A stretch of 13,624 bases of DNA from a virus (taxonomy: Duplodnaviria > Heunggongvirae > Uroviricota > Caudoviricetes): IMG/VR virus record IMGVR_UViG_3300038409_000042; one strand, written 5' to 3'. Positions within the stretch are counted from its first letter, which is position 1. Each line of letters opens with the position of its first letter. Below are positions 1 through 11,377 of this stretch, in pieces. The notes under the pieces are model-generated. The model did not search any database, had not been told where the DNA came from, and saw nothing but the letters and a program-made list of their open reading frames with translations. The position numbers were made by a program, and so were the translations under genes.

Positions 1-3000
1 TTCTGGCGTGAGAACAGCTTTAGCAACTTCCTCAACGGTAGGCTCTTCGGCCTTTTCTCTGTATCCAGTTACAGCTTGAAGTCTTGCCTCAGTATCGTCT
101 TCTGATTCTGGGACAAGTTTTTTCGAATCCGCTATATCTTCTATCTCTTTAAGGAGAGCTTGCGCTTCGGAATCTTCTGGAAATCTAGGAAGCCATTTTC
201 GAGCATCCCTAAGAGCCCTTGCGTAAATCTCGTCTTGATCAAAGCTGTCTTCCTTTTTTGTCTTTGCCAATTTAAGAGATTGACGTACTAGGTTTTTGGC
301 TTTTTCTGCCTTATCGACTTCAGTTACTTTTTTTTTACCTGCCATATCACGAAGAGCGGCTATGGCTTCTTTCTTCGAAGAATAGGCTGTCCCGGTAACG
401 GCCTCTGCGACTTGTCTTACAAACGGAGACGGATCATTAACCAGCTCCCTGACTTCTCCAAGGAACTCTACCTCATCACCGATAAGGCTCTTCAGCCTCT
501 CGACTGTAGCAGTGACATCATCTGTTGGCGGTGCAGTTACAGTATCTGACGCAGCTTCTTCCTGCTTTGTCTCATCCACTCTTCCAGCATAATCGGACTT
601 AATTCTCTCTATGCCATTCTTCTTTGTGGCTGGTCTTCCAAGGTTCATCATAGAGTTGAGAGTGATGATCTGTTCCTTGGTCAGCTTTCCAAGGTTTTTA
701 TCAACCCAATTGTTAAATTCCTCAACGCTCGGATTTGTTTTAATGAATTCTTTGACCGCCTTTCGGATTCCGACTGGACCTTCATCAGATATAGGAGTTT
801 CCTTTTTTTCTACGGTAGGTTCTGGAGCCGTTATACCTCTGAAGGATTCGAACAGTTCCCTTACCTGACCAAGCCCTTTATTTCGTTCAGCAAACTGTCT
901 AACAAACGCACTAGGAAAGACGGACTCTGGTATATTAAATCTGGTCGGATCAAGAGAATCTTTGAATGTCCTAATCAAATCCTTTATGCCAATTCCTAAG
1001 GTTTTGGCATGCCCTCGCATATCCTCAACTATTTTTAGCGCTTGCTCGGCAGAGGCTTCAGCCTTTTGGGCCTCTTGCTCAGACGGTCTAGGTTTAGCTT
1101 CGTAGTCGAAAACTTCCTCTAGTTTTTTTCTTTTTTCCTGTCTTTCTTCTTCATGTATCCTGGAACTGATCGCATAAGCTTCTTCCATAGGAACAAGCTC
1201 AAAATTGCCAGGAAGTACCCGTGCCATCCCCAATTTGCCAAGCGCTTCTACCTTCTTCAAATATTCTTGAGGCGTTTCAGGTTGAAGATTTTTCCCCATT
1301 AAGTTGCCCTTGTGAGCAAAGGCATATGCTTGATCTAAATCATGGATTCCTTCGCCAAGGGCATGGGCTTGTGAATCATAGAAGTCTTTGTCTGGATCGG
1401 GACTGTAATAGCCATTGGGTCCACCCTCAGTATTGAAGGCAGACTTAACCTCATTCCAGACTTCCAGAAGGTTCTCAGGAACTTGAACCCTTACGCGCTC
1501 TTCTCTACCTCTTCGGCTCGGTCGGGCCATTGCTTTTGATTGACGGAGTGTTCGCACAGGCGCTGGAGCTTCCGCTTCTGGCTCTGGAGTCGGCGCAGCG
1601 CCCTCAGGATATTTTTCTCTGATAGCTGCAAGTGCCGTATCCTTACGTTGTCGCGCAGCCTTAGAAGCTCCAACAAGTCGTGCTGCGATCTTCGTAACCG
1701 GGGCAGGGGCATCTTCTAGTTCCTTGTATCCTTCTGTACGCGTTTCGGTATTTTCAATTTTCGCAAGTATTTTTGCTGCGGTTTCACCGTGTTGAGTACG
1801 GGCTTCCTCACGTTTGGCTTGAACCTGTCTTTGTTCTTCACTGACCTCTCCCCTCCGTCGTTTCTCGGCGGCTTCTTCCCTCTTGATATCTGCCGCTCGT
1901 TCGGTTTCCAATCCAAGATAAGTTTCGTAGAGACCGCCAAGAAGCTGTTCTCTATTAAGAATATTTAAGTTTTCTGAAACCTCATCTCTAATAGCTTCTT
2001 GTCTTTCTTCGCTTACTCCTTCCGGGTATTGAATACTATCGAGAATCGCTTCCTTAAGTTCATCGTCGCTGGCATCCTGCCATTCCCTCAAGAAGTCTTC
2101 TTCGCTGACCGCAGTGACTTCCTCTGCCGCGACTTCACGATCTTCAATCTCTCTGGCTTCGCGTTCTGGTCCGCGAATATCCTCAGGCGCAATCTCTCCT
2201 GGTTTTGTCGGTTGGAGATTCTTAGCTGCCCGAATGATATCGTTGATCGATGCTCTTGCCCCCAGGATAGGTCTGTCCCTGGTCTTTTGGCCGTAGAGAT
2301 TAACAAGCTGCCTAATTTTATTAGCAGCTGGAGTTGTATCCTTTTTGTAATAACGTTCAAGCTCAGCTTCTTGAACAAGACCCGCGATCTGATTGAGAAT
2401 GTTCTGATATTCTTGCGGAATCGGCTCGGCTTTGACGGGTTCAATCTTACGTCCAGTTAATTGCTGAGCTGTGCGAGGCGGGACAAATGTGGGCTCGGGT
2501 TTACCGGCCTCGACTTCCTCAGCCGTTTTTCGGCCCGGCCGTCGCTTTATATCTATGAGTTCATTATAACTTCTACGTAATGGATCAGTCGTGGGGATTG
2601 CGTCTCTGAGCCGTTTCAGAGTATCCAGGTCCGTTCGCGACGCGAGTTCTACATATTCCTCATCTGAAGCGTCTCTAGAATGAAGATCAGAAATCTCTTG
2701 ACTAAGCTCTTGATCGGTCGGACCTTCCTTTTCCTTTACTGGAGGTTCTTCTGGTTCTGGCGCAGCTTCGGCCGTATCACTAACAGGTTCCGCTTCCTCC
2801 TCTACAGGCTGCTCGGCCGCCTCTGATTCTTCTACTTCCGTTGCGTAACGGACATAGGCTCCGGCCAAAGCAAAAGCTGCTTCTGGATCATTATATGATT
2901 GCGCTTCATTAATTATTTCTTCTGCGATATTACTTAGACCGTTTTCTTCAAGGATCGAAGATAGTGCAATTACGTTCTGTGGAAGCGAGCTGCTTCTAAC

Positions 3001-4503
3001 CATCTGAACGGCAGATTGAATATCGCTTATTTGCTTTTTTGTTAATTCTACTGGATTTTCTTCGAAGTAACCCTCATACACTGAAGGGGTTAACTTAAAC
3101 TCTTCCTCGCCATCCTCAAGCTCATCATCAATATCTTCTTGAGTCGCCGGCTCTTCATCATCTCTAAGTGTGCCTAGTCTATTCTCAGCATAGGCATTTC
3201 GTATTTGTTCGTCTGTATATCCATCTCTTTGCAGTCCTTCAGCAACGTCATTAATGTCCTGCGGCTGCTCAGCCTCCCCCGTTTCTTTCTCGATCGGCTC
3301 CGGCTGTATCTGTGTTGGCTGTTGAATGGACGGCGGCGCTCCAGGAGCGGGCGTCGGTTCCGCAATAGCCCCGGTAGGCGAGATAATGGTTTGTCCAGAC
3401 TCATCATATAACTGTTCTTCTCTTCTCCTTAACTTTTCAATATTTTCTGCAAGTTGCTGTTCTTCTTGTTGTGGTTGTGTAAGACTTTCAATACCACCAA
3501 ATCCAGCGCCACCTAACGTTCCTGCCGCAGCGCCCATAATGGCTGCCTCTGGTACGCCAGCTAACAATTGTTGTTCTGGATTAATTTGCGCTTGGGTAAT
3601 ATTTTGAGTAAGTTGTTCAACAACAGACTGAGGCAACTCTTCTACAATGCCCTCTTGTAGCCCTCTCTTGACAATGTTTCTAAATAGACCCTTAGCGGCT
3701 GTGCCGGCTGCCCCAGGGAGGCCAAGAGAACCGATAAGACCAACTATTGCGCCAGAACCGCCTGCCATTTGAGGGGCTAATCTCTGTGATACTAATTTTA
3801 TAGCCGCAGCATAATCACCATTTGTTTCGGCAAGAGCCTGATTTCCTAAAGGAGAGTTTATAAATTCTTCTTGATTCTCTATTGCGTAGTTGGAGATTGC
3901 ATCTTCTATAGAACTTAATGTTTGAGCGCCTGAAATAAGACCCTCTAATCCTCCAGCCACTCCGGCAGACCTAGCTACCATGGCCGGACCCATTGTAGCG
4001 GCAACGGCTGGAGCGGATTCTGCTAATGTTCCAACTACAGTTTGAGGAGTGACGCCCGTCAGTTCAATAGGGCCTAGTTGAGTCCTCATTCTTTGCTGAG
4101 CCATATATTCAGGGCTCAGCGTCTCAAGTTCTTCTTCTGCTACTTGTCTTCCGTATTCTCTAGCGCCTCTACCAAAGCCTCTAATTGCCTCTGTGAGAGG
4201 AGATTTTAGAGACGGCAATGGCAGATCAACGCCAGCTGTAACGGCTCTCCACGGCCTTTCCGAGAAGCCTGCTACCAGCTCAGCGAGACCGCCGCCAGTT
4301 TCAGGAACAAGCCTTTTAGCGCCAGCGGCAAGAAGATCAGCAATATCTTCTCCAGAAGGAGCTAGTCCAAATGGAGTTATTGCTGGAGTTCCTACATTTA
4401 TATCTTCACCCTGTTGGCGGCGAACTTCTTGAGCAGCAACTTCTACAGGAGTGTCATCTTCAAATTCGTATTCTTTTCCTTGGCGACGAATAATATAGGT
4501 CAC
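1..4503 (-). CDS. Giant internal virion/ejection protein, more than 1501 aa, C-terminus beyond the window edge (absent from the ORF track)
   Basis: My manual translation from GTG at 4503-4501 is stop-free to base 1: MTYIIRRQGKEYEFEDDTPVEVAQEVRRQQG...EEPTVEEVAKAVLTPE. An in-frame TAG at 4518-4516 bounds the start. It lies 18 nt after the stop of the 451-aa gene. It has a Gly/Ala hydrophobic region (aa ~50-341) followed by Glu/Pro-rich linkers and helical islands. Confidence 0.9.
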   Translation of the reverse strand, partial: MTYIIRRQGKEYEFEDDTPVEVAAQEVRRQQGEDINVGTPAITPFGLAPSGEDIADLLAAGAKRLVPETGGGLAELVAGFSERPWRAVTAGVDLPLPSLKSPLTEAIRGFGRGAREYGRQVAEEELETLSPEYMAQQRMRTQLGPIELTGVTPQTVVGTLAESAPAVAATMGPAMVARSAGVAGGLEGLISGAQTLSSIEDAISNYAIENQEEFINSPLGNQALAETNGDYAAAIKLVSQRLAPQMAGGSGAIVGLIGSLGLPGAAGTAAKGLFRNIVKRGLQEGIVEELPQSVVEQLTQNITQAQINPEQQLLAGVPEAAIMGAAAGTLGGAGFGGIESLTQPQQEEQQLAENIEKLRRREEQLYDESGQTIISPTGAIAEPTPAPGAPPSIQQPTQIQPEPIEKETGEAEQPQDINDVAEGLQRDGYTDEQIRNAYAENRLGTLRDDEEPATQEDIDDELEDGEEEFKLTPSVYEGYFEENPVELTKKQISDIQSAVQMVRSSSLPQNVIALSSILEENGLSNIAEEIINEAQSYNDPEAAFALAGAYVRYATEVEESEAAEQPVEEEAEPVSDTAEAAPEPEEPPVKEKEGPTDQELSQEISDLHSRDASDEEYVELASRTDLDTLKRLRDAIPTTDPLRRSYNELIDIKRRPGRKTAEEVEAGKPEPTFVPPRTAQQLTGRKIEPVKAEPIPQEYQNILNQIAGLVQEAELERYYKKDTTPAANKIRQLVNLYGQKTRDRPILGARASINDIIRAAKNLQPTKPGEIAPEDIRGPEREAREIEDREVAAEEVTAVSEEDFLREWQDASDDELKEAILDSIQYPEGVSEERQEAIRDEVSENLNILNREQLLGGLYETYLGLETERAADIKREEAAEKRRRGEVSEEQRQVQAKREEARTQHGETAAKILAKIENTETRTEGYKELEDAPAPVTKIAARLVGASKAARQRKDTALAAIREKYPEGAAPTPEPEAEAPAPVRTLRQSKAMARPSRRGREERVRVQVPENLLEVWNEVKSAFNTEGGPNGYYSPDPDKDFYDSQAHALGEGIHDLDQAYAFAHKGNLMGKNLQPETPQEYLKKVEALGKLGMARVLPGNFELVPMEEAYAISSRIHEEERQEKRKKLEEVFDYEAKPRPSEQEAQKAEASAEQALKIVEDMRGHAKTLGIGIKDLIRTFKDSLDPTRFNIPESVFPSAFVRQFAERNKGLGQVRELFESFRGITAPEPTVEKKETPISDEGPVGIRKAVKEFIKTNPSVEEFNNWVDKNLGKLTKEQIITLNSMMNLGRPATKKNGIERIKSDYAGRVDETKQEEAASDTVTAPPTDDVTATVERLKSLIGDEVEFLGEVRELVNDPSPFVRQVAEAVTGTAYSSKKEAIAALRDMAGKKKVTEVDKAEKAKNLVRQSLKLAKTKKEDSFDQDEIYARALRDARKWLPRFPEDSEAQALLKEIEDIADSKKLVPESEDDTEARLQAVTGYREKAEEPTVEEVAKAVLTPE

Positions 4504-4521: not shown

Positions 4522-5877
4522 TTAATCTATTTCGTAAACCCGTCTACCATCTTTTGGAGCTGCCGGACGTATTCTAGGATTATTCGTAGGAATATTGTAT
4601 ATATCACCTTGAAATCCATTTGTACTCATAGGAGTTGTTGTGGCTCTAGGTGCTGTTCCTGTACGTCTAGGAGAAGGCTCTATAACATCCCTGCCAGGAA
4701 TAGTTGGAATTCCAAATGATGGATATGGAGAAACTTCGCCAGTCTCTGGATCAACCCTAACAGATTCTTCAGGTTGCTCTTGTTGTGGAATATTAATGCC
4801 AAGCGGATTAATTTTTGCCACAGCATCTCTTGCATTCTGCGCTTGTTCGTTCCAGTATCTTGCTTCTTCAACCATTCTTTCTCCGGCCTCTCTTTTTGTT
4901 TCATCTTCACTGTCAAGTAACTGAGTTCCTTGAGCATATAGTTGAGTAGCCATTGTAGCGGCTTGAGTCATCATGGTTCTGACAAGATCATATTCCTGTG
5001 CTCTAAGAGTAGCGCCAGCTTGAATACGAGCAACAGATATTTGATTTTGTCTATTAAGATCGGAATTTCTAAGATCAACAGAGGTTTTTATCATGTTCTG
5101 AGCCCTGTTAGCACCGACTTCAAACATGCGTCCGCCAAGACCGGCTATGCCTTGTTGACGTTGAGATTCCGCTTGGCCCAATGTCAGAGCATTTCTCAGT
5201 CCTCTCTCCTCTTCTCCCGATCTCCTCTGCCGCATTCCCCTGTAAGATTCTAATGCGGCAGGCCCCGCTCCGGCAAGGTTCGTTAGAAAGTTCGGAGATT
5301 TTCCGCCGGCTATCCCAGACCCAATAGAGAGAAGTAATTCTGTAATGTCCTGTTGCCTTCGTCTCGGCTCTTGGGCTTCATAGTTAGCAATACGCTCCCT
5401 AATAGGCCCCATTACATCTGGTAAAAATTGCCCAGCTTGCGATATCATGTCAGCCATGCTAGGTTCCGGGAATGCCGCAGCGCCCTGACGAACCATATCT
5501 AAATAATCGTTTAGGCCGCCATCTGCCATTCGTATTGTGCCGCCCTTTTTCATTGGTACGGGGGCCTGTGGCTGCATTGGGGACGGTTGTGTGGCTGGCC
5601 CTTGCCCTGCTGGCATGGGTTGTGGGGCTTGTTGTGGTCCTGCTGTTGGTGGCATTAGACTTTGAAGTCCGCGACCGATCACGCGATCGGCAATAGTCTC
5701 TTGAGGATTAGCCTGCATCGCCATCATACGTTGCTTATCCTCATTTCTTCGTGAAATTTCTCCAAGGGCTATGATATTATCTGGAGCATTTCCGCTCTGA
5801 GATATTTCAATAAGTTCAGGAAGCTCTCTTCCCTTCATACTCTCTTGTTTTTCGATTAAATTCATCGAAGCCGCCAT
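4522..5877 (-). CDS. Putative DNA ejection/internal virion protein (second ejection-gene position), 451 aa
   Basis: ORF is coupled by TAATG to the upstream gene. It has an N-terminal helical block (LGEISRRNEDKQRMM), a Pro/Gln linker, the tandem motif MKKGG-TIR-MADGG, amphipathic Gly-rich helices (LLLSIGSGIAGG; FLTNLAGAG) and Gln/Arg-rich coiled-coil segments. It lies just before the giant ORF. Confidence 0.7.
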   Translation of the reverse strand: MAASMNLIEKQESMKGRELPELIEISQSGNAPDNIIALGEISRRNEDKQRMMAMQANPQETIADRVIGRGLQSLMPPTAGPQQAPQPMPAGQGPATQPSPMQPQAPVPMKKGGTIRMADGGLNDYLDMVRQGAAAFPEPSMADMISQAGQFLPDVMGPIRERIANYEAQEPRRRQQDITELLLSIGSGIAGGKSPNFLTNLAGAGPAALESYRGMRQRRSGEEERGLRNALTLGQAESQRQQGIAGLGGRMFEVGANRAQNMIKTSVDLRNSDLNRQNQISVARIQAGATLRAQEYDLVRTMMTQAATMATQLYAQGTQLLDSEDETKREAGERMVEEARYWNEQAQNARDAVAKINPLGINIPQQEQPEESVRVDPETGEVSPYPSFGIPTIPGRDVIEPSPRRTGTAPRATTTPMSTNGFQGDIYNIPTNNPRIRPAAPKDGRRVYEID

Positions 5878-6998
5878 TATCCGCCTCCGCCGCCTTGTCC
5901 TAGAGCCTGAGAAAGGGCATATGCATTAAGTCCAAGGCCCAACATTTGAGAATATGGATTAACATTTTCGTAAGTAGAAACATTTGCATTAGCATTGACA
6001 GGAACGCCCCTTAAGATTGAACTGAGAAAATTAAGGTTTTGTCTGTCAAAATCTCTTTGATTTATAAAATCCTCATAGGAAAGATCAAGAGATGCTTGTT
6101 CTCTTTGTTGTTGCTGAAGGCCAGTTTGGCGCATAGCATCAAGAATATCGAGATTTCCAGCTAGACCTTGCTGATTTACATCAGACAAGAGGCCGCCCAA
6201 GCCTCCAAGTGTTTGGGCTCTTGTTTCTGCCAGTTGCGCAGCTCTTTGCCGCGCTTCTTCATTCATACCAAAAGCTTGAAGCTCCTGTCCAAGAAGGCCG
6301 CGACGGCTGACATCGGCTAACTCTTGACCCCTAAGACCCTGTTCAATATTAAATTGCTCAGCGCCCATCCTAGCGGCGCGATCTCTCTCGAATTGTTGTT
6401 GGGCATTTTCAAAAGCACTTTGCAGGCCGGTTCTATAAATATCTCCAGTTTGCTGGAGGTATCCCCTTTCAGCAATACCTTCTGAAACTCCGTGCCGTCC
6501 GCCTCCAAAGCCACCGGCCCTAGCCGCCGCTCCTTGTCTAGCAACGTTTTGCTCTGCAAAATCCCTTGCTAATCTATCCCTCTGAGCATCAAGAACTTGA
6601 GAGATATATGGAGACATATATTGTTCCGATACTCCGGAATCAATAAACATCTGCGGAGTAACGGTACCAACATTAAATTCCGAAGGAGTGAAGTCGCCTT
6701 GAAACTGCCCCGCTTGATATGGACTAGCTTGCAGAAGTTCTTGACTTCCCTGTCCAATAAGTCCCTGAGCCTGCTCTTGGCCCGGTTGATAGAGACCGCT
6801 AAGGCCCCTAGCCATACCGAATGAAGTTTCTTGGTCAGGATTAAATCCAGCAATCCTAGGTCCTGGATAAAGGGCGTAAGGTTCATTAGACACGCCCTCT
6901 GCTCTTGCCATAAGGCGCTCAAAGTACGGACGCGCATACTCAGGTAAGTTAGTCTGCGTTATACTTTGCTGTGAAGGACCGCTGTCTTTTCCGCCCAT
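5877..6998 (-). CDS. Putative DNA ejection/pilot protein (first ejection-gene position, P22 gp7/T7 gp14-like slot), 373 aa
   Basis: Gln/Gly/Ala-rich, beginning MGGKDSG. It carries motifs I recognise from podophage ejection proteins (LPEYARPY; YMSPYISQVLD; AARAGGFGGGRHGV; DFDRQNLNFLSSILRG) and a hydrophobic C-terminal helix (MLGLGLNAYALSQALG). It directly follows the GNAT-like gene. Confidence 0.72.
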   Translation of the reverse strand: MGGKDSGPSQQSITQTNLPEYARPYFERLMARAEGVSNEPYALYPGPRIAGFNPDQETSFGMARGLSGLYQPGQEQAQGLIGQGSQELLQASPYQAGQFQGDFTPSEFNVGTVTPQMFIDSGVSEQYMSPYISQVLDAQRDRLARDFAEQNVARQGAAARAGGFGGGRHGVSEGIAERGYLQQTGDIYRTGLQSAFENAQQQFERDRAARMGAEQFNIEQGLRGQELADVSRRGLLGQELQAFGMNEEARQRAAQLAETRAQTLGGLGGLLSDVNQQGLAGNLDILDAMRQTGLQQQQREQASLDLSYEDFINQRDFDRQNLNFLSSILRGVPVNANANVSTYENVNPYSQMLGLGLNAYALSQALGQGGGGG

Positions 6999-7003
6999 TT
7001 AAT

Positions 7004-7411
7004 CTAATATTCTTTCTCCATAAACACCGCAGTCGGAGTCATGTCTGGAAACATCTTAACCCATCCTGCCCTTCCTAACCATTCCTGTCCGGCGCAATTT
7101 TCCCCTTTACCAATCTTTTCTACGAGAGAATACATATTATCCTTCCAATCCTTTAGATCATTGCCGGCAAGAGATATGATTCTTAACATTGTTTTTCTAG
7201 GATATGGTATGATTGAGAACGTTAGACATCCATGTATTTCACCATCATCATCAAATGCTATGAGAAGATTCTGTTCTCCATCAATACATTTATCGATGAT
7301 ATCATTTGCTGTGTATCTTCCTAATGTATATCTTTCTAACGTTCTTAAATGTTCAACACAAACTTCTCTAATCTTTTCTATATGCTCTCTAGGCACCATT
7401 GAAACGTGCAT
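7004..7411 (-). CDS. GNAT/acetyltransferase-fold-like virion-associated protein (T7 gp13-like position), 135 aa
   Basis: The alternating beta/alpha pattern (NLLIAFDDDGEIHGCLTFSIIPYPRKTMLRIISLAG ... WLGRAGWVKMF) fits a GNAT-like fold. It sits between nozzle and ejection genes and is TAATG-coupled at 7411. Catalytic activity is not shown. Confidence 0.6.
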   Translation of the reverse strand: MHVSMVPREHIEKIREVCVEHLRTLERYTLGRYTANDIIDKCIDGEQNLLIAFDDDGEIHGCLTFSIIPYPRKTMLRIISLAGNDLKDWKDNMYSLVEKIGKGENCAGQEWLGRAGWVKMFPDMTPTAVFMEKEY

Positions 7412-8238
7412 TACTTTCTCCTTCGGATTAGCTCTTCCCTAATCCTGTCCATTCCTTCCGTTCCTATAGCATCAACAGCCTTCTTTGGCATCACATATTC
7501 TCCTGGCTGTAATAGGAATGGAACTTGTTCTCCCTTTCTATTCACTGAAAAGGCTTTTACCGTATCTCCATATCCTCTACCAGGGCCATAAACTGTACCG
7601 CCCATCATTTCATCGGATGTTCCTGAGGGAACAACCGGCATGGTTGATAATCCTTCTTCACGAGTTGGGAAGAAGCTGAATTCTCCTTCTTGTTCGGAGC
7701 CAGAGACACCGTAATTTTGATAATTGCTAGTGGGCATATTAAGTGCTGAATAGCTAGAACGCGGTCCAGCCTCGTCGAATTGTTCGGGATACTTGCTCGG
7801 ATCATATGTTTCTCCTGGGAGTCCTGAAGAGTCTCCTAACCCACCTAGGCCACTAACTAACATAGCTGTAACCATTGGATTATCTTTCATCCAACTCATA
7901 ATGCCACTTAGGCCGCCACCTGTTCCGCTTGCGGCACCTTGACCTAAGGCGCTTGCTAAGTTTTCCTTAGCCACTGCCTGAGCTAACTGATCTGCACCCG
8001 TGGCGGCGCTACCGAGAACAGCCGCTTCTCCCGCACCCTTTGCCGCTTCGCCAGCGCCGCCGAACATTCCTCCCCCCAATCCGCCCGTAAGGCCGCCAAT
8101 TGCACCGGACAGTAGAGCGGCTTCAGGATCATCTGGATTCATAATGAGAGACCCAATGCCAGAGCCAAGCGCCCCAGCCAGCCACGGAGACAGTCCAAGT
8201 GCTGAGCCTAAAAACGGAAGAATGAGCGGAAGAACCAT
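7411..8238 (-). CDS. Gly-rich putative internal virion protein with N-terminal hydrophobic helices and a C-terminal tape-measure-like GG..GPG..GEYV domain, 275 aa
   Basis: The N-terminus has glycine-zipper hydrophobic segments (LILPFLGSALGLSPWLAGALGSGIGSLI; LLSGAIGGLTGGLGGG). The C-terminus reads MMGGTVYGPGRGYGDT...LQPGEYVMPKKAVDAIGTEGMDRIR. Confidence 0.65.
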   Translation of the reverse strand: MVLPLILPFLGSALGLSPWLAGALGSGIGSLIMNPDDPEAALLSGAIGGLTGGLGGGMFGGAGEAAKGAGEAAVLGSAATGADQLAQAVAKENLASALGQGAASGTGGGLSGIMSWMKDNPMVTAMLVSGLGGLGDSSGLPGETYDPSKYPEQFDEAGPRSSYSALNMPTSNYQNYGVSGSEQEGEFSFFPTREEGLSTMPVVPSGTSDEMMGGTVYGPGRGYGDTVKAFSVNRKGEQVPFLLQPGEYVMPKKAVDAIGTEGMDRIREELIRRRK

Positions 8239-10548: not shown

Positions 10549-10891
10549 CGTCTCGTGCTTGCATCTCCGCGAAATCCATTTTCAATAACTCTAACATACC
10601 GATTGCTCCCGGAATATCCTTAAAGATACCAGGGCCGGCAATCATTGTTTCTGCCTTAATGTCTGGATTAGTGGAGAACATCACGATCAATACGCCGTCT
10701 ATTTCTTTTGCCTCTGTTTTTAATTTAATAGTGTCGGCAGCTTCTATAAAGGCAGCATTCATCTCCGCCTCGAAAGCGTCTGTCTTTTCGGACTTCTCAG
10801 CTTCCTTCTTATAGGTCTTCTCACCAAAGAGACTGACTACCTTTCCGTCTGGTTCATCGTCTCTATTATCGCTTCCCGTGTCCTCAGCCAT
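10532..10891 (-). CDS. Hypothetical acidic protein, 119 aa
   Basis: A clear SD-like GAGGAAG precedes the ATG. The protein has an acidic N-terminus with GKVVSLF, then a helix and a beta-hairpin. It overlaps the o-spanin by 55 nt and the nozzle gene by 17 nt. No family recognised. Confidence 0.75.
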   Translation of the reverse strand: MAEDTGSDNRDDEPDGKVVSLFGEKTYKKEAEKSEKTDAFEAEMNAAFIEAADTIKLKTEAKEIDGVLIVMFSTNPDIKAETMIAGPGIFKDIPGAIGMLELLKMDFAEMQARDDGTFD

Positions 10892-11121
10892 GACTTCACT
10901 TCCTCTAACTTAGCGGCGCAATCATCGCCGCGATGCTTCAACCGAAGCAACAATTCTGCTATCTGATTGTCCGTTAATTGATCGCCGCGCTGTCCAGGTA
11001 TTGGGACCTGAACCTCACAGTTTAGTAATCTATCAGGGACTTGTAGGTTCGGCTTCGTCGCGCATGAGATCAACAGCAGCGCGAACAGAAGGGCCGCAGC
11101 CCTGTGTTGTCGGTTGAGCAT
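10837..11121 (-). CDS. o-spanin (Rz1-like outer-membrane lipoprotein), 94 aa
   Basis: Start is re-assigned to the ATG at 11121, giving the signal peptide MLNRQHRAAALLFALLLIS-C with lipobox LLISC. It has a Pro-rich linker, two further Cys (LLNCE, GDDCAAK) and a C-terminal amphipathic helix. It overlaps the 3' end of the i-spanin by 89 nt in another frame. Confidence 0.82.
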   Translation of the reverse strand: MLNRQHRAAALLFALLLISCATKPNLQVPDRLLNCEVQVPIPGQRGDQLTDNQIAELLLRLKHRGDDCAAKLEEVKSWLRTREAIIETMNQTER

Positions 11122-11377
11122 TAACAATCTGTATCTCTTTAACAAGGGTATGCCTTCTCGTAAGGGTTCCCTCAATGGAATTCCTAATCTCCTCTAGGCT
11201 AGAAGAGACCGTCTGCTCTCTGAATGCAGCCCGATCAGCCCTGTTTTTCTCTTCTCGAACTTGTTGCTTAAGTTCGATAATGTCGGCAGAACTATCACCC
11301 AATTTCCAGCCTATAAACCCTGTGGATATGGCAAGAATTCCTGCGGCAATCCATCCGAAGTTATTCAGAATTCCCAT
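11033..11377 (-). CDS. i-spanin (Rz-like inner-membrane protein), 114 aa
   Basis: A single N-terminal TM helix (FGWIAAGILAISTGFIGW) is followed by a periplasmic coiled coil (IIELKQQVREEKNRADRAAFREQ) and a Cys near the C-terminus (QGCGPS). An overlapping lipoprotein gene follows. Confidence 0.82.
   Translation of the reverse strand: MGILNNFGWIAAGILAISTGFIGWKLGDSSADIIELKQQVREEKNRADRAAFREQTVSSSLEEIRNSIEGTLTRRHTLVKEIQIVNAQPTTQGCGPSVRAAVDLMRDEAEPTSP

Follow-up and report, generated by a model that had tools for sequence, protein, structure and literature searches.

The stretch of DNA analysed here, referred to as the window (13,624 nucleotides; G000:C1:10892-24515 in a 47.9-kb phage contig), contains a very long minus-strand reading frame that runs off its edge, and this raises the question of what kind of protein begins there and what its successive parts may do. 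A sequence-only reading had proposed a giant ejected protein of the polyvalent type, in which a membrane/channel module at the N-terminus is followed by a cargo train, mostly of domains that could not be assigned.

The open frame is part of one gene for a 3655-aa protein

The claim of a stop-free frame was borne out, since re-translation of this part of the window gave 1501 aa with zero stops. The peptides quoted earlier were all found in the translation, namely GLQEGIVEELPQSVVEQLTQNI...GAAAGTLGG at aa 281-332 and five Pro/Glu linkers. When the frame was followed on the contig past the window edge it reached its stop, which gives a full gene of 3655 aa (contig 4427..15394, minus strand); the part in the window is the N-terminal 41% of the protein. 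As a 1501-codon open frame is impossible by chance, and as giants of similar length have both protein ends in common with the 3655-aa giant, we conclude that the frame belongs to a single gene and did not arise as a fusion artefact. Two observations favour the GTG start: relatives align from residue 3-4, and AlphaFold2 gives a confident prediction for aa 1-34. The Gly/Ala-rich composition ascribed to the N-terminus was also recovered, Gly+Ala amounting to 23-27% in aa 1-400 compared to 10-18% in most later bins. The features of the window are listed in Table 1.

Table 1. Features of the giant protein gene and of its neighbours, in window coordinates
Feature	Position	Strand	Description
Giant gene, first 1501 codons	1..4503	minus	GTG start, 3' end open, stop-free translation
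Giant, aa 1-34	4402..4503	minus	Conserved beta-hairpin and helix at the extreme N-terminus; AlphaFold2 pLDDT 80-89
Giant, aa 35-111	4171..4401	minus	Gly-rich, low-confidence prediction, pLDDT 35-53
N-module, aa 112-342	3478..4170	minus	Conserved Gly/Ala-rich helical bundle; putative inner-membrane or ejectosome docking
Signature motif, aa 284-336	3496..3654	minus	EGxxEExPQSxxEQxxQN...GVPEAAxxGAxxGxxxGxxxG
Pro-rich linker, aa 376-401	3301..3378	minus	Directly after the N-module
Helical region, aa 402-1501	1..3300	minus	Acidic, all-helical, about nine islands between Pro/Glu linkers
451-aa cysteine-free protein	4522..5877	minus	Directly upstream of the giant; ejection-protein candidate judging solely from position and cysteine pattern
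373-aa cysteine-free protein	5877..6998	minus	phrog_4287 'DNA ejection protein', E 2e-18

The giant gene closes a podovirus-type module and its product lacks cysteine

The genes of the cluster follow the order TerL, portal, major head protein, tail fibre, a 626-aa virion protein and then the ejection genes, with the 373-aa 'DNA ejection protein', the 451-aa protein and the giant, as the last large gene, at the module end. This cluster is a podovirus-type structural/ejection module, and from TerL onwards the giant gene is placed among virion genes, as are those of polyvalent proteins. A phrog_4287-type gene accompanies the N-module gene in loci L019, L045, L042, L073 and L014. The neighbour genes showed no sequence similarity to N4 gp51-53, and no homology was detected between them and the virion proteins of Bcep22 and SopranoGao.

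Not one of the 3655 residues of the giant is a cysteine, and the 451-, 373- and 275-aa neighbours likewise have none. At the cysteine content of the rest of the proteome (0.78%), 28 would be expected in the giant (P(0) = 4.5e-13); its relatives contain 31 cysteines in 114,115 residues. Suppression of cysteine has been published as the hallmark of the ejection operon in Schitoviridae (PMC11445570), and the pattern of the N4 gp50 type is found here in the giant and in the 451-aa and 373-aa proteins.

Residues ~400-1500 look like a fast-evolving helical string

The beads-on-a-string shape proposed for this region is real as far as the helical islands and the Pro/Glu linkers are concerned (the strongest Pro-rich linkers lie at aa 376-401, 577-595, 665-680 and 964-984), but the beads were not shown to be effectors. 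For aa ~400-1500 there was no Pfam, PHROG, PDB or ESM Atlas relative, and the Pfam domains SAP, HeH and Rho-N gave no match. HMMER in 1.84 billion representatives returned no relative for aa 460-1200, tblastn of the string against 119 related loci found no match, and self-BLAST for internal repeats reached E 0.011 at best. The AlphaFold2 model of aa 401-1501 is all-helical and free of beta structure, its mean pLDDT being 52, and Foldseek gave no fold match for it. Identity of the string to the five closest giants is 6-20%, with gaps of up to 72%. The cargo train that had been placed here is not sustained by these results, and aa ~400-1500 looks like a fast-evolving string without an assignable fold.

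An alternative is that the region does carry a succession of distinct effector domains, destined for the host and too novel to be recognised, and the about nine islands split by linkers would suit such a train; moreover, polyvalent proteins can hold up to 15 domains and include 40 LPD families without assigned function (PMC5512222). We consider this unlikely, given the empty HMMER, tblastn, Pfam and Atlas searches and the low-confidence model devoid of beta structure, and given that true effector domains in this class are widely shared, whereas the string is barely alike even among the closest giants.

Recognisable domains lie beyond the window and probably place the giant among polyvalent proteins

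Any recognisable enzymes had been expected past the window edge, and it is there, at aa ~1760-2340, that LPD23, two conserved HExxH motifs and a weak GNAT-like stretch are located. LPD23 (aa 1969-2024) scores 60.3 bits in Pfam against a cut-off of 27 (E 1.5e-16). The first of the two zincin-type HExxH motifs is invariant in relatives, with H1829, E1830, H1833 and E1845 retained in all six closest giants, and no Pfam metallopeptidase family matched in the giant; the GNAT signal, at 15.6 bits, is below its cut-off of 20.7. Enzyme assignments other than that of LPD23 are weak, and we treat them as putative. For the C-module, the profile of the closest relatives matches the PLxRFG domain of SopranoGao (100%, E 8e-52), the giant's own sequence has no NCBIfam match and no literal PLxRFG motif, and no match to Bcep22 gp75 was found. 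Judged by profile comparison, the C-terminal ~1,000 aa are probably a divergent PLxRFG ('tail-700', NF032893) domain.

The proposal of a polyvalent ejected-type giant is upheld by LPD23 above cut-off, by the domain repertoire of relatives and by the last position in a podovirus-type ejection cluster. Twelve other N-module giants carry LPD23/37/38/39/1, ART-PolyVal, InPase, SLT, VanY and Hydrolase_2, as well as methylases, SNF2/ResIII and PBECR1. With the polyvalent proteins of Iyer et al. 2017 (PMC5512222) the giant shares LPD23, HExxH-type motifs, the virion-gene context and the domain mix of relatives, although one signature domain alone passes the curated cut-off in the giant itself.

Closest among known members are Bcep22 gp75, JC1 gp69 and Klebsiella phage SopranoGao gp06, and further genes of this kind are found in Sinorhizobium PBC5, Agrobacterium Atu_ph08, Pseudoalteromonas Y7 and Microcystis Mwe-JY07. 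Giants of this type, found in Bcep22-like (Lessievirus) and Lastavirus podophages, are labelled 'DarB-like antirestriction' or 'PLxRFG'. JC1 gp69, whose closest match by annotation is Bcep22 gp75, was identified when virions purified on CsCl were analysed by mass spectrometry (PMC9144972). The N-module is common to Bcep22 gp75 (141 bits) and SopranoGao gp06 (169 bits); as in the giant, both proteins lack cysteine and have a Pro-rich bin near the same position (aa 600-800) after the N-module. In the Bcep22-like and Lastavirus phages, too, no large gene of the structural module comes after that of the giant, which is preceded by genes for virion proteins devoid of cysteine. Methylase, helicase and lysozyme domains are absent from the protein studied here, unlike the Bcep22 and SopranoGao giants, and its middle 1100 aa are unique. 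Apart from the N4 link (described below), it is a typical representative of its class.

The same comparisons bear on the idea that the giant is a purely structural component of the ejectosome or internal core, like T7 gp16, in which HExxH, LPD23 and GNAT are inactive relics. Among the closest giants compared, conservation is highest at the two ends and not in the enzyme-like middle, and the sub-threshold GNAT and the missing Pfam peptidase match point the same way. However, the invariant HExxH residues, the score of LPD23, well over its cut-off, and the many intact enzyme domains that relatives have at the same position make this explanation improbable.

The family shares a conserved N-terminal module

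Taken from sequence comparisons, the N-module is a conserved and still unnamed module. AlphaFold2 predicts aa 180-370 with pLDDT 80-97, and the signature motif has E284, E289, N301 and G324 as invariant residues and includes a glycine zipper (G324-x3-G328-x3-G332). HMMER in the 1.84 billion representatives produced 54 matches, all within aa 1-466 of the giant, and most of the N-module matches sit at the N-terminal end of proteins of 2000-4575 aa. With a hand-made degenerate DNA pattern, at least 119 IMG/VR contigs proved to carry the motif, which lies at ORF residue ~260-300. In tblastn against GenBank phages the 1501 aa gave no match at 1e-5, and cultured-phage relatives surfaced only when the 200-aa core of the module was searched at a relaxed E. 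A word-based search of aa 1-1500 against 5.8 billion proteins returned only the query itself, low-complexity words having probably swamped it. PDB sequence searches with both halves and with the family profile gave no match, and fold searches of the N-module model gave helical matches at noise level only.

The module also bears on another explanation, that of a DarB-like antirestriction enzyme protecting incoming DNA by methylase and helicase activity. The giant matches phrog_10089 'DarB-like antirestriction' (E 4.6e-11, aa 161-656), a label that relatives in cultured phages also bear, but this match spans the N-module and no catalytic domain. Moreover, there is no methylase or helicase Pfam or NCBIfam match in the giant, whereas SopranoGao gp06 and other relatives have them, and we regard such an activity as very unlikely. 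Identity with phage P1 DarB was rejected, its N6-adenine methylase and SF2 helicase domains being absent in Pfam and NCBIfam searches.

The N-module is linked at profile level to the N4 virion RNA polymerase

An N-module HMM built solely from proteins without RNA polymerase hits N4 gp50 at aa 271-441 with 49-55 bits (maximum of 7.8 in 2000 shuffles) and also matches three other Schitoviridae vRNAPs. The module aligns with aa 181-446 of the N4 vRNAP NTD, and hhalign of the two gave 96.6% at E 6e-10, with eight control region pairs negative; direct phmmer against N4 gave E 0.2, so the N4 link holds at profile level only. The N4 vRNAP NTD binds lipid, inserts into nanodiscs and has been linked to injection (PMC13434306), and the proposed membrane/injection role of the giant's N-terminus is plausible by profile homology to a part of it. 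The best 19-residue Kyte-Doolittle mean in the N-module is 1.5, with no segment at classical transmembrane hydrophobicity. A docking role of the module is uncertain, because in DEV it was the C-terminal region, and not the N-terminus, that bound the tunnel protein (PMC11445570).

Like N4 gp50, the giant is a cysteine-free protein of ~3500 aa encoded by the last gene of a late operon after smaller ejection proteins, and the N4 vRNAP has also been described as beads-on-a-string (PMC13434306, PMC13492108, PMC11445570). Unlike gp50, it has no RNA polymerase core (for a central T7-like core, vRNAP Pfam families, Pol HMM, hhalign and PDB profile search were all negative) and showed no recognisable homology to the N4 CTD, for which the best hhalign result was 6% at E 0.006 across 85 collinear columns. 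Nor are the other structural proteins related to those of N4, and the phage is not N4-like. That the giant is a divergent N4-type virion RNA polymerase is hardly credible, despite the NTD homology, the similar size and gene position and BFVD fold matches that include proteins named 'RNA polymerase' or 'VRNAP', since none of the four Pfam vRNAP families matched (N4 gp50 scores E 1e-22 to 1e-97), the Schitoviridae Pol and CTD HMMs were negative as was hhalign, and a PDB search with the family profile turned up no N4 structure.

When Iyer et al. 2017 searched with the N-terminal region of N4, they reported vRNAP relatives and nothing else (PMC5512222), whereas here this region ties N4 to polymerase-free giants; this link is the modest new point of our analysis. 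We lean towards regarding the N-module as a common delivery/anchoring domain of some Schitoviridae vRNAPs and of a large polymerase-free polyvalent family. The N4 polymerase and the giants would then be cargo-swapped versions of one ejection-protein chassis, with the hypervariable string as a translocation-competent spacer and not cargo. The polymerase-free family considered here comprises giants of the Bcep22, Lastavirus and PBC5 types, and among uncultured phages it extends to at least 119 contigs.

Proposed course of ejection

With a probability of roughly 75%, we read the giant as the last and largest ejection protein of this phage, composed of an N-module anchor and a helical string. Gene structure, module homologies, cysteine suppression and gene context stand as results, and from the data above we infer its packaging, ejection, order of exit and membrane anchoring as follows. 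The giant would be made late, packed into the capsid in few copies and expelled at infection via the short tail, after two smaller cysteine-free proteins; these, of 373 and 451 aa, probably form an envelope-spanning conduit. The N-module, with its Gly/Ala-rich helices and a glycine zipper flanking the invariant acidic/polar helix, may anchor the giant at the inner membrane or at the ejectosome, a role already proposed for the part of the N4 vRNAP NTD that is homologous to it. Small helical units on Pro/Glu linkers would pass the ~35 Å channel unit by unit, and the lack of cysteine would avoid disulfide trapping in the periplasm. The string (aa ~400-1500) presumably evolves too fast for conserved enzymes, so that possible host-acting parts would be the two HExxH motifs, LPD23 and the GNAT-like stretch, and the C-terminal PLxRFG-type domain may have a part in packaging or docking.

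One shared piece is often the reason why giant virion proteins encoded at the ends of podophage structural modules are called 'DarB-like', 'RNA polymerase' or 'DNA methylase'. Here, the shared piece is the N-terminal module, which is a warning against function labels inherited through it. The EGxxEExPQSxxEQxxQN motif with its glycine zipper offers N4 and DEV ejectosome work a conserved, mutable motif, one that bears on how megadalton proteins thread through such a narrow channel.

The giant gene closes a podovirus-type structural module

The window (bases 10892-24515 of a 47,883-base IMG/VR phage record) opens with a minus-strand frame that is part of a real gene: in the ORF listing it is a single frame of 1501 codons with a GTG start, open at the window edge, and its translation contains all the peptides quoted in the sequence-only reading. 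That reading proposed extending the contig leftwards to find the stop codon; here, the stop was reached, giving a protein of 3655 aa and a gene 2.4 times longer than the part first visible. Gly and Ala make up 23-27% of the first 400 residues and less thereafter. Between the window and the stored phage record (G000) there are six single-base differences within the first 5.1 kb (window 128, 393, 856, 1484, 2314 and 3262), of which none creates a stop; four amino-acid differences are visible in the translations.

Along the minus strand, the large terminase is followed by a 977-aa portal, the major head protein, virion and tail proteins, the tail fibre, spanin genes, a 626-aa virion protein, 275-aa and 135-aa proteins, a 373-aa protein (phrog_4287, "DNA ejection protein"), a 451-aa protein and the giant. 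Among the scanned proteins, none was recognised as a tail tube, sheath or tape measure; we therefore take the structural module to be of the podovirus type, and the giant is the last of its large genes. The spanin signals, between the tail-fibre and 626-aa protein genes within this module, occupy an unusual site for lysis genes.

Features of the giant protein and of neighbouring or related loci
Feature	Position	Observation
Visible part of giant gene	window 1..4503 (-)	first 1501 aa
Complete giant gene	contig 4427..15394	3655 aa
Hairpin and helix	aa 1-34	small, conserved
phrog_10089 match	aa 161-656	"DarB-like antirestriction" (PHROGs)
Helical bundle	aa 180-370	pLDDT 80-97
Pro-rich linkers, clearest	aa 376-401, 577-595, 665-680, 964-984	
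Acidic region	aa 401-600	strongly acidic
Helical islands	aa ~600-650, 800-870, 890-940, 1400-1460	pLDDT 65-81
HExxH motifs	aa 1829; aa 2131	
LPD23	aa 1969-2024	Pfam, E 1.5e-16
GNAT	aa 2254-2340	Pfam, sub-threshold
C-module, best-conserved part	aa ~2560-3600	outside window
Hydrophobic helix	aa 3326-3344; contig L002 5362-5418	Kyte-Doolittle mean 1.95
135-aa gene	window 7004-7411 (-)	4 Cys
275-aa gene	window 7411-8238 (-)	cysteine-free
Rz-like spanin, Rz1-like LysC signals	window 10837-11175 (-)	
SopranoGao locus (L130)	12840-25949	
Bcep22 locus (L131)	11951-25759	

A conserved N-terminal module is shared by giant phage proteins

When aa 1-1200 were compared exhaustively by HMMER with 1.84 billion representative proteins, 54 matches emerged, all of them within aa 1-466 and mostly to the N-termini of 2000-4575-aa proteins. 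In the alignment, this module (N-module, aa ~112-342) has the signature EGxxEExPQSxxEQxxQN...GVPEAAxxGAxxGxxxGxxxG, four invariant residues (E284, E289, N301 and G324) and a glycine zipper (G324/G328/G332). This signature coincides exactly with the stretch quoted by the sequence-only reading from what it took to be a membrane or channel module. By a degenerate DNA pattern, the motif is carried by at least 119 IMG/VR contigs, in most of them at about ORF residue 260-300, with complete ORFs of up to 3760 aa. AlphaFold2 with the alignment predicted a confident helical bundle here, as well as a terminal hairpin and helix (see table). A fold search with the N-module model gave no solved structure above noise; in BFVD, the top matches were the opening segments of other phage giants, together with several entries labelled vRNAP, an Atlas search returned unnamed viral clusters only, and no Pfam family covers the module. 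The definition of this widely distributed N-module is a new contribution of our analysis.

In tblastn, the module core matched the giant genes of Agrobacterium phage Atu_ph08, Microcystis phage Mwe-JY07, Sinorhizobium phage PBC5, Pseudoalteromonas phage Y7 and Klebsiella phage SopranoGao, annotated as "DarB-like antirestriction", "PLxRFG protein", "Snf2 helicase" or "DNA methylase". Such labels differ by phage, and 'RNA polymerase' is found in BFVD; in the PHROG match to the giant itself, the label comes from the shared N-module and has no catalytic domain behind it. Against the module HMM, SopranoGao gp06 (4369 aa) scores 169 bits and Bcep22 gp75 (4602 aa) 141 bits. Both are, like the giant, last in their structural modules, and in both phages, as in this one, cysteine-free virion proteins alternate with a cysteine-bearing small (here putative) acyltransferase, although the neighbour genes have no detectable sequence similarity to those of this phage. 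The 135-aa gene, flanked by cysteine-free genes, matches Bcep22 gp69 and SopranoGao gp10 in position (acyl-CoA N-acyltransferases, 4 Cys each); the sequence evidence for such a function amounts to one very weak PHROG match to an acetyltransferase (E 0.25). By PHROG comparison, the 275-aa protein weakly resembles an internal virion protein that has an endolysin domain (E 0.0012) and, through aa 212-267, tape-measure C-termini (E 0.003).

The N-module is related at profile level to part of the N-terminal domain of N4 vRNAP

The N-module HMM, built solely from proteins without the Schitoviridae polymerase or CTD, matched coliphage N4 gp50 at aa 271-441 with 49 bits; the segment cut out and scored by itself gave 55 bits, and none of 2000 shuffles of it exceeded 7.8 bits. 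It also matched the vRNAPs of Salmonella phage SP154, Stenotrophomonas phage Pokken and Ruegeria phage V12; those of JSF3 and PASB7 gave no match. In profile-profile comparison, giant aa 112-342 aligned with N4 aa 181-446 (96.6%, E 6e-10, 225 columns), while the remaining eight combinations of N, middle and C regions were all negative. [quoted passage not shown] This link is new here: we found no earlier description in the accessible literature, and searches with the N4 N-terminal region by Iyer et al. 2017 recovered only vRNAP relatives (PMC5512222). The N4 NTD, not resolved by cryo-EM, has membrane-spanning helices predicted at aa 224-278, inserts into nanodiscs and is proposed to tether the last-ejected protein to the inner membrane (PMC13434306; PMC13492108).

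The middle region is a string without recognisable cargo

The exhaustive scan gave no relative for aa 460-1200, tblastn no match to the middle (aa ~400-1500) among the at least 119 related loci, Pfam and PDB sequence searches nothing, and Atlas no usable match. Identity to the five closest giants is 6-20% in the middle (gaps up to 72%), whereas the N-module and the C-module keep 30-36% and 25-39%, respectively. Single-sequence AlphaFold2 predicted 41 helices and no strands (mean pLDDT 52), with better-scoring islands (see table) between disordered linkers; no significant internal repeats were found. The sequence-only reading had pictured beads on a string, a cargo train of mostly unassigned domains, and for this stretch, the larger part of what it described, that interpretation is at its weakest: the shape holds, in helical islands and disordered linkers, but no relatives, no fold match and no other sign of effector domains were found for the beads. 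We read the middle as a fast-evolving, translocation-competent string, paralleled by N4 vRNAP, which has been described as beads on a string and whose N-terminal region is largely helical with low-complexity linkers (PMC13434306, PMC5512222).

Enzyme-like signals and the C-module lie beyond the window

As had been guessed from the sequence, the recognisable enzyme-like signals (LPD23, GNAT and HExxH) are all beyond the window edge; the HExxH at aa 1829, together with E1845, is invariant in the six closest giants. A profile of the closest relatives matched the C-terminal NF032893 "PLxRFG, tail-700" domain of SopranoGao gp06 (hhalign 100%, E 8e-52), with C-module/PLxRFG HMM scores of 102 and 128 bits for this comparison; the giant's own sequence has no NCBIfam match and lacks the literal PLxRFG motif. 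We identify the C-module, through its relatives' profile, as a probable divergent PLxRFG domain. Against the N4 CTD, the C-region gave a weak collinear hhalign match (6%, E 0.006), which does not establish homology. Inside this collinear match lies the giant's only strongly hydrophobic, transmembrane-like helix, in the conserved C-module rather than at the N-terminus.

Cysteine is suppressed across the family

The giant has no Cys in 3655 residues, and the 451-, 373- and 275-aa proteins upstream are also cysteine-free. At the 0.78% of the remaining proteome, 28 would be expected in the giant (P(0) 4.5e-13). The 54 relatives together hold 31 Cys in 114,115 residues, and there are none in Bcep22 gp75, SopranoGao gp06 or the six vRNAPs examined. 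In the Schitoviridae, cysteine suppression marks the ejection operon and has been ascribed to the transit of the proteins across the periplasm (PMC11445570). Among the indirect evidence for ejection of the giant and its 451- and 373-aa neighbours, the missing cysteine is the strongest. The family-wide absence of cysteine is a new observation.

The giant belongs to a known class of virion-borne proteins

Virion proteomics of related phages, the check proposed by the sequence-only reading, is available for JC1: gp69, by its authors most similar to Bcep22 gp75, was detected by mass spectrometry in CsCl-purified virions (PMC9144972). The domain repertoire typical of polyvalent proteins is present in twelve other giants with the N-module; in this giant, neither the DarB enzymes nor an RNA polymerase was found. 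It belongs to the known class of virion-borne polyvalent, or "DarB-like", podophage proteins, and would be packaged, ejected and anchored at a membrane. To this class, our analysis adds a negative result for the cargo train, a defined N-module with its distribution, the link to the N4 NTD, the absence of cysteine and a probable PLxRFG C-module.
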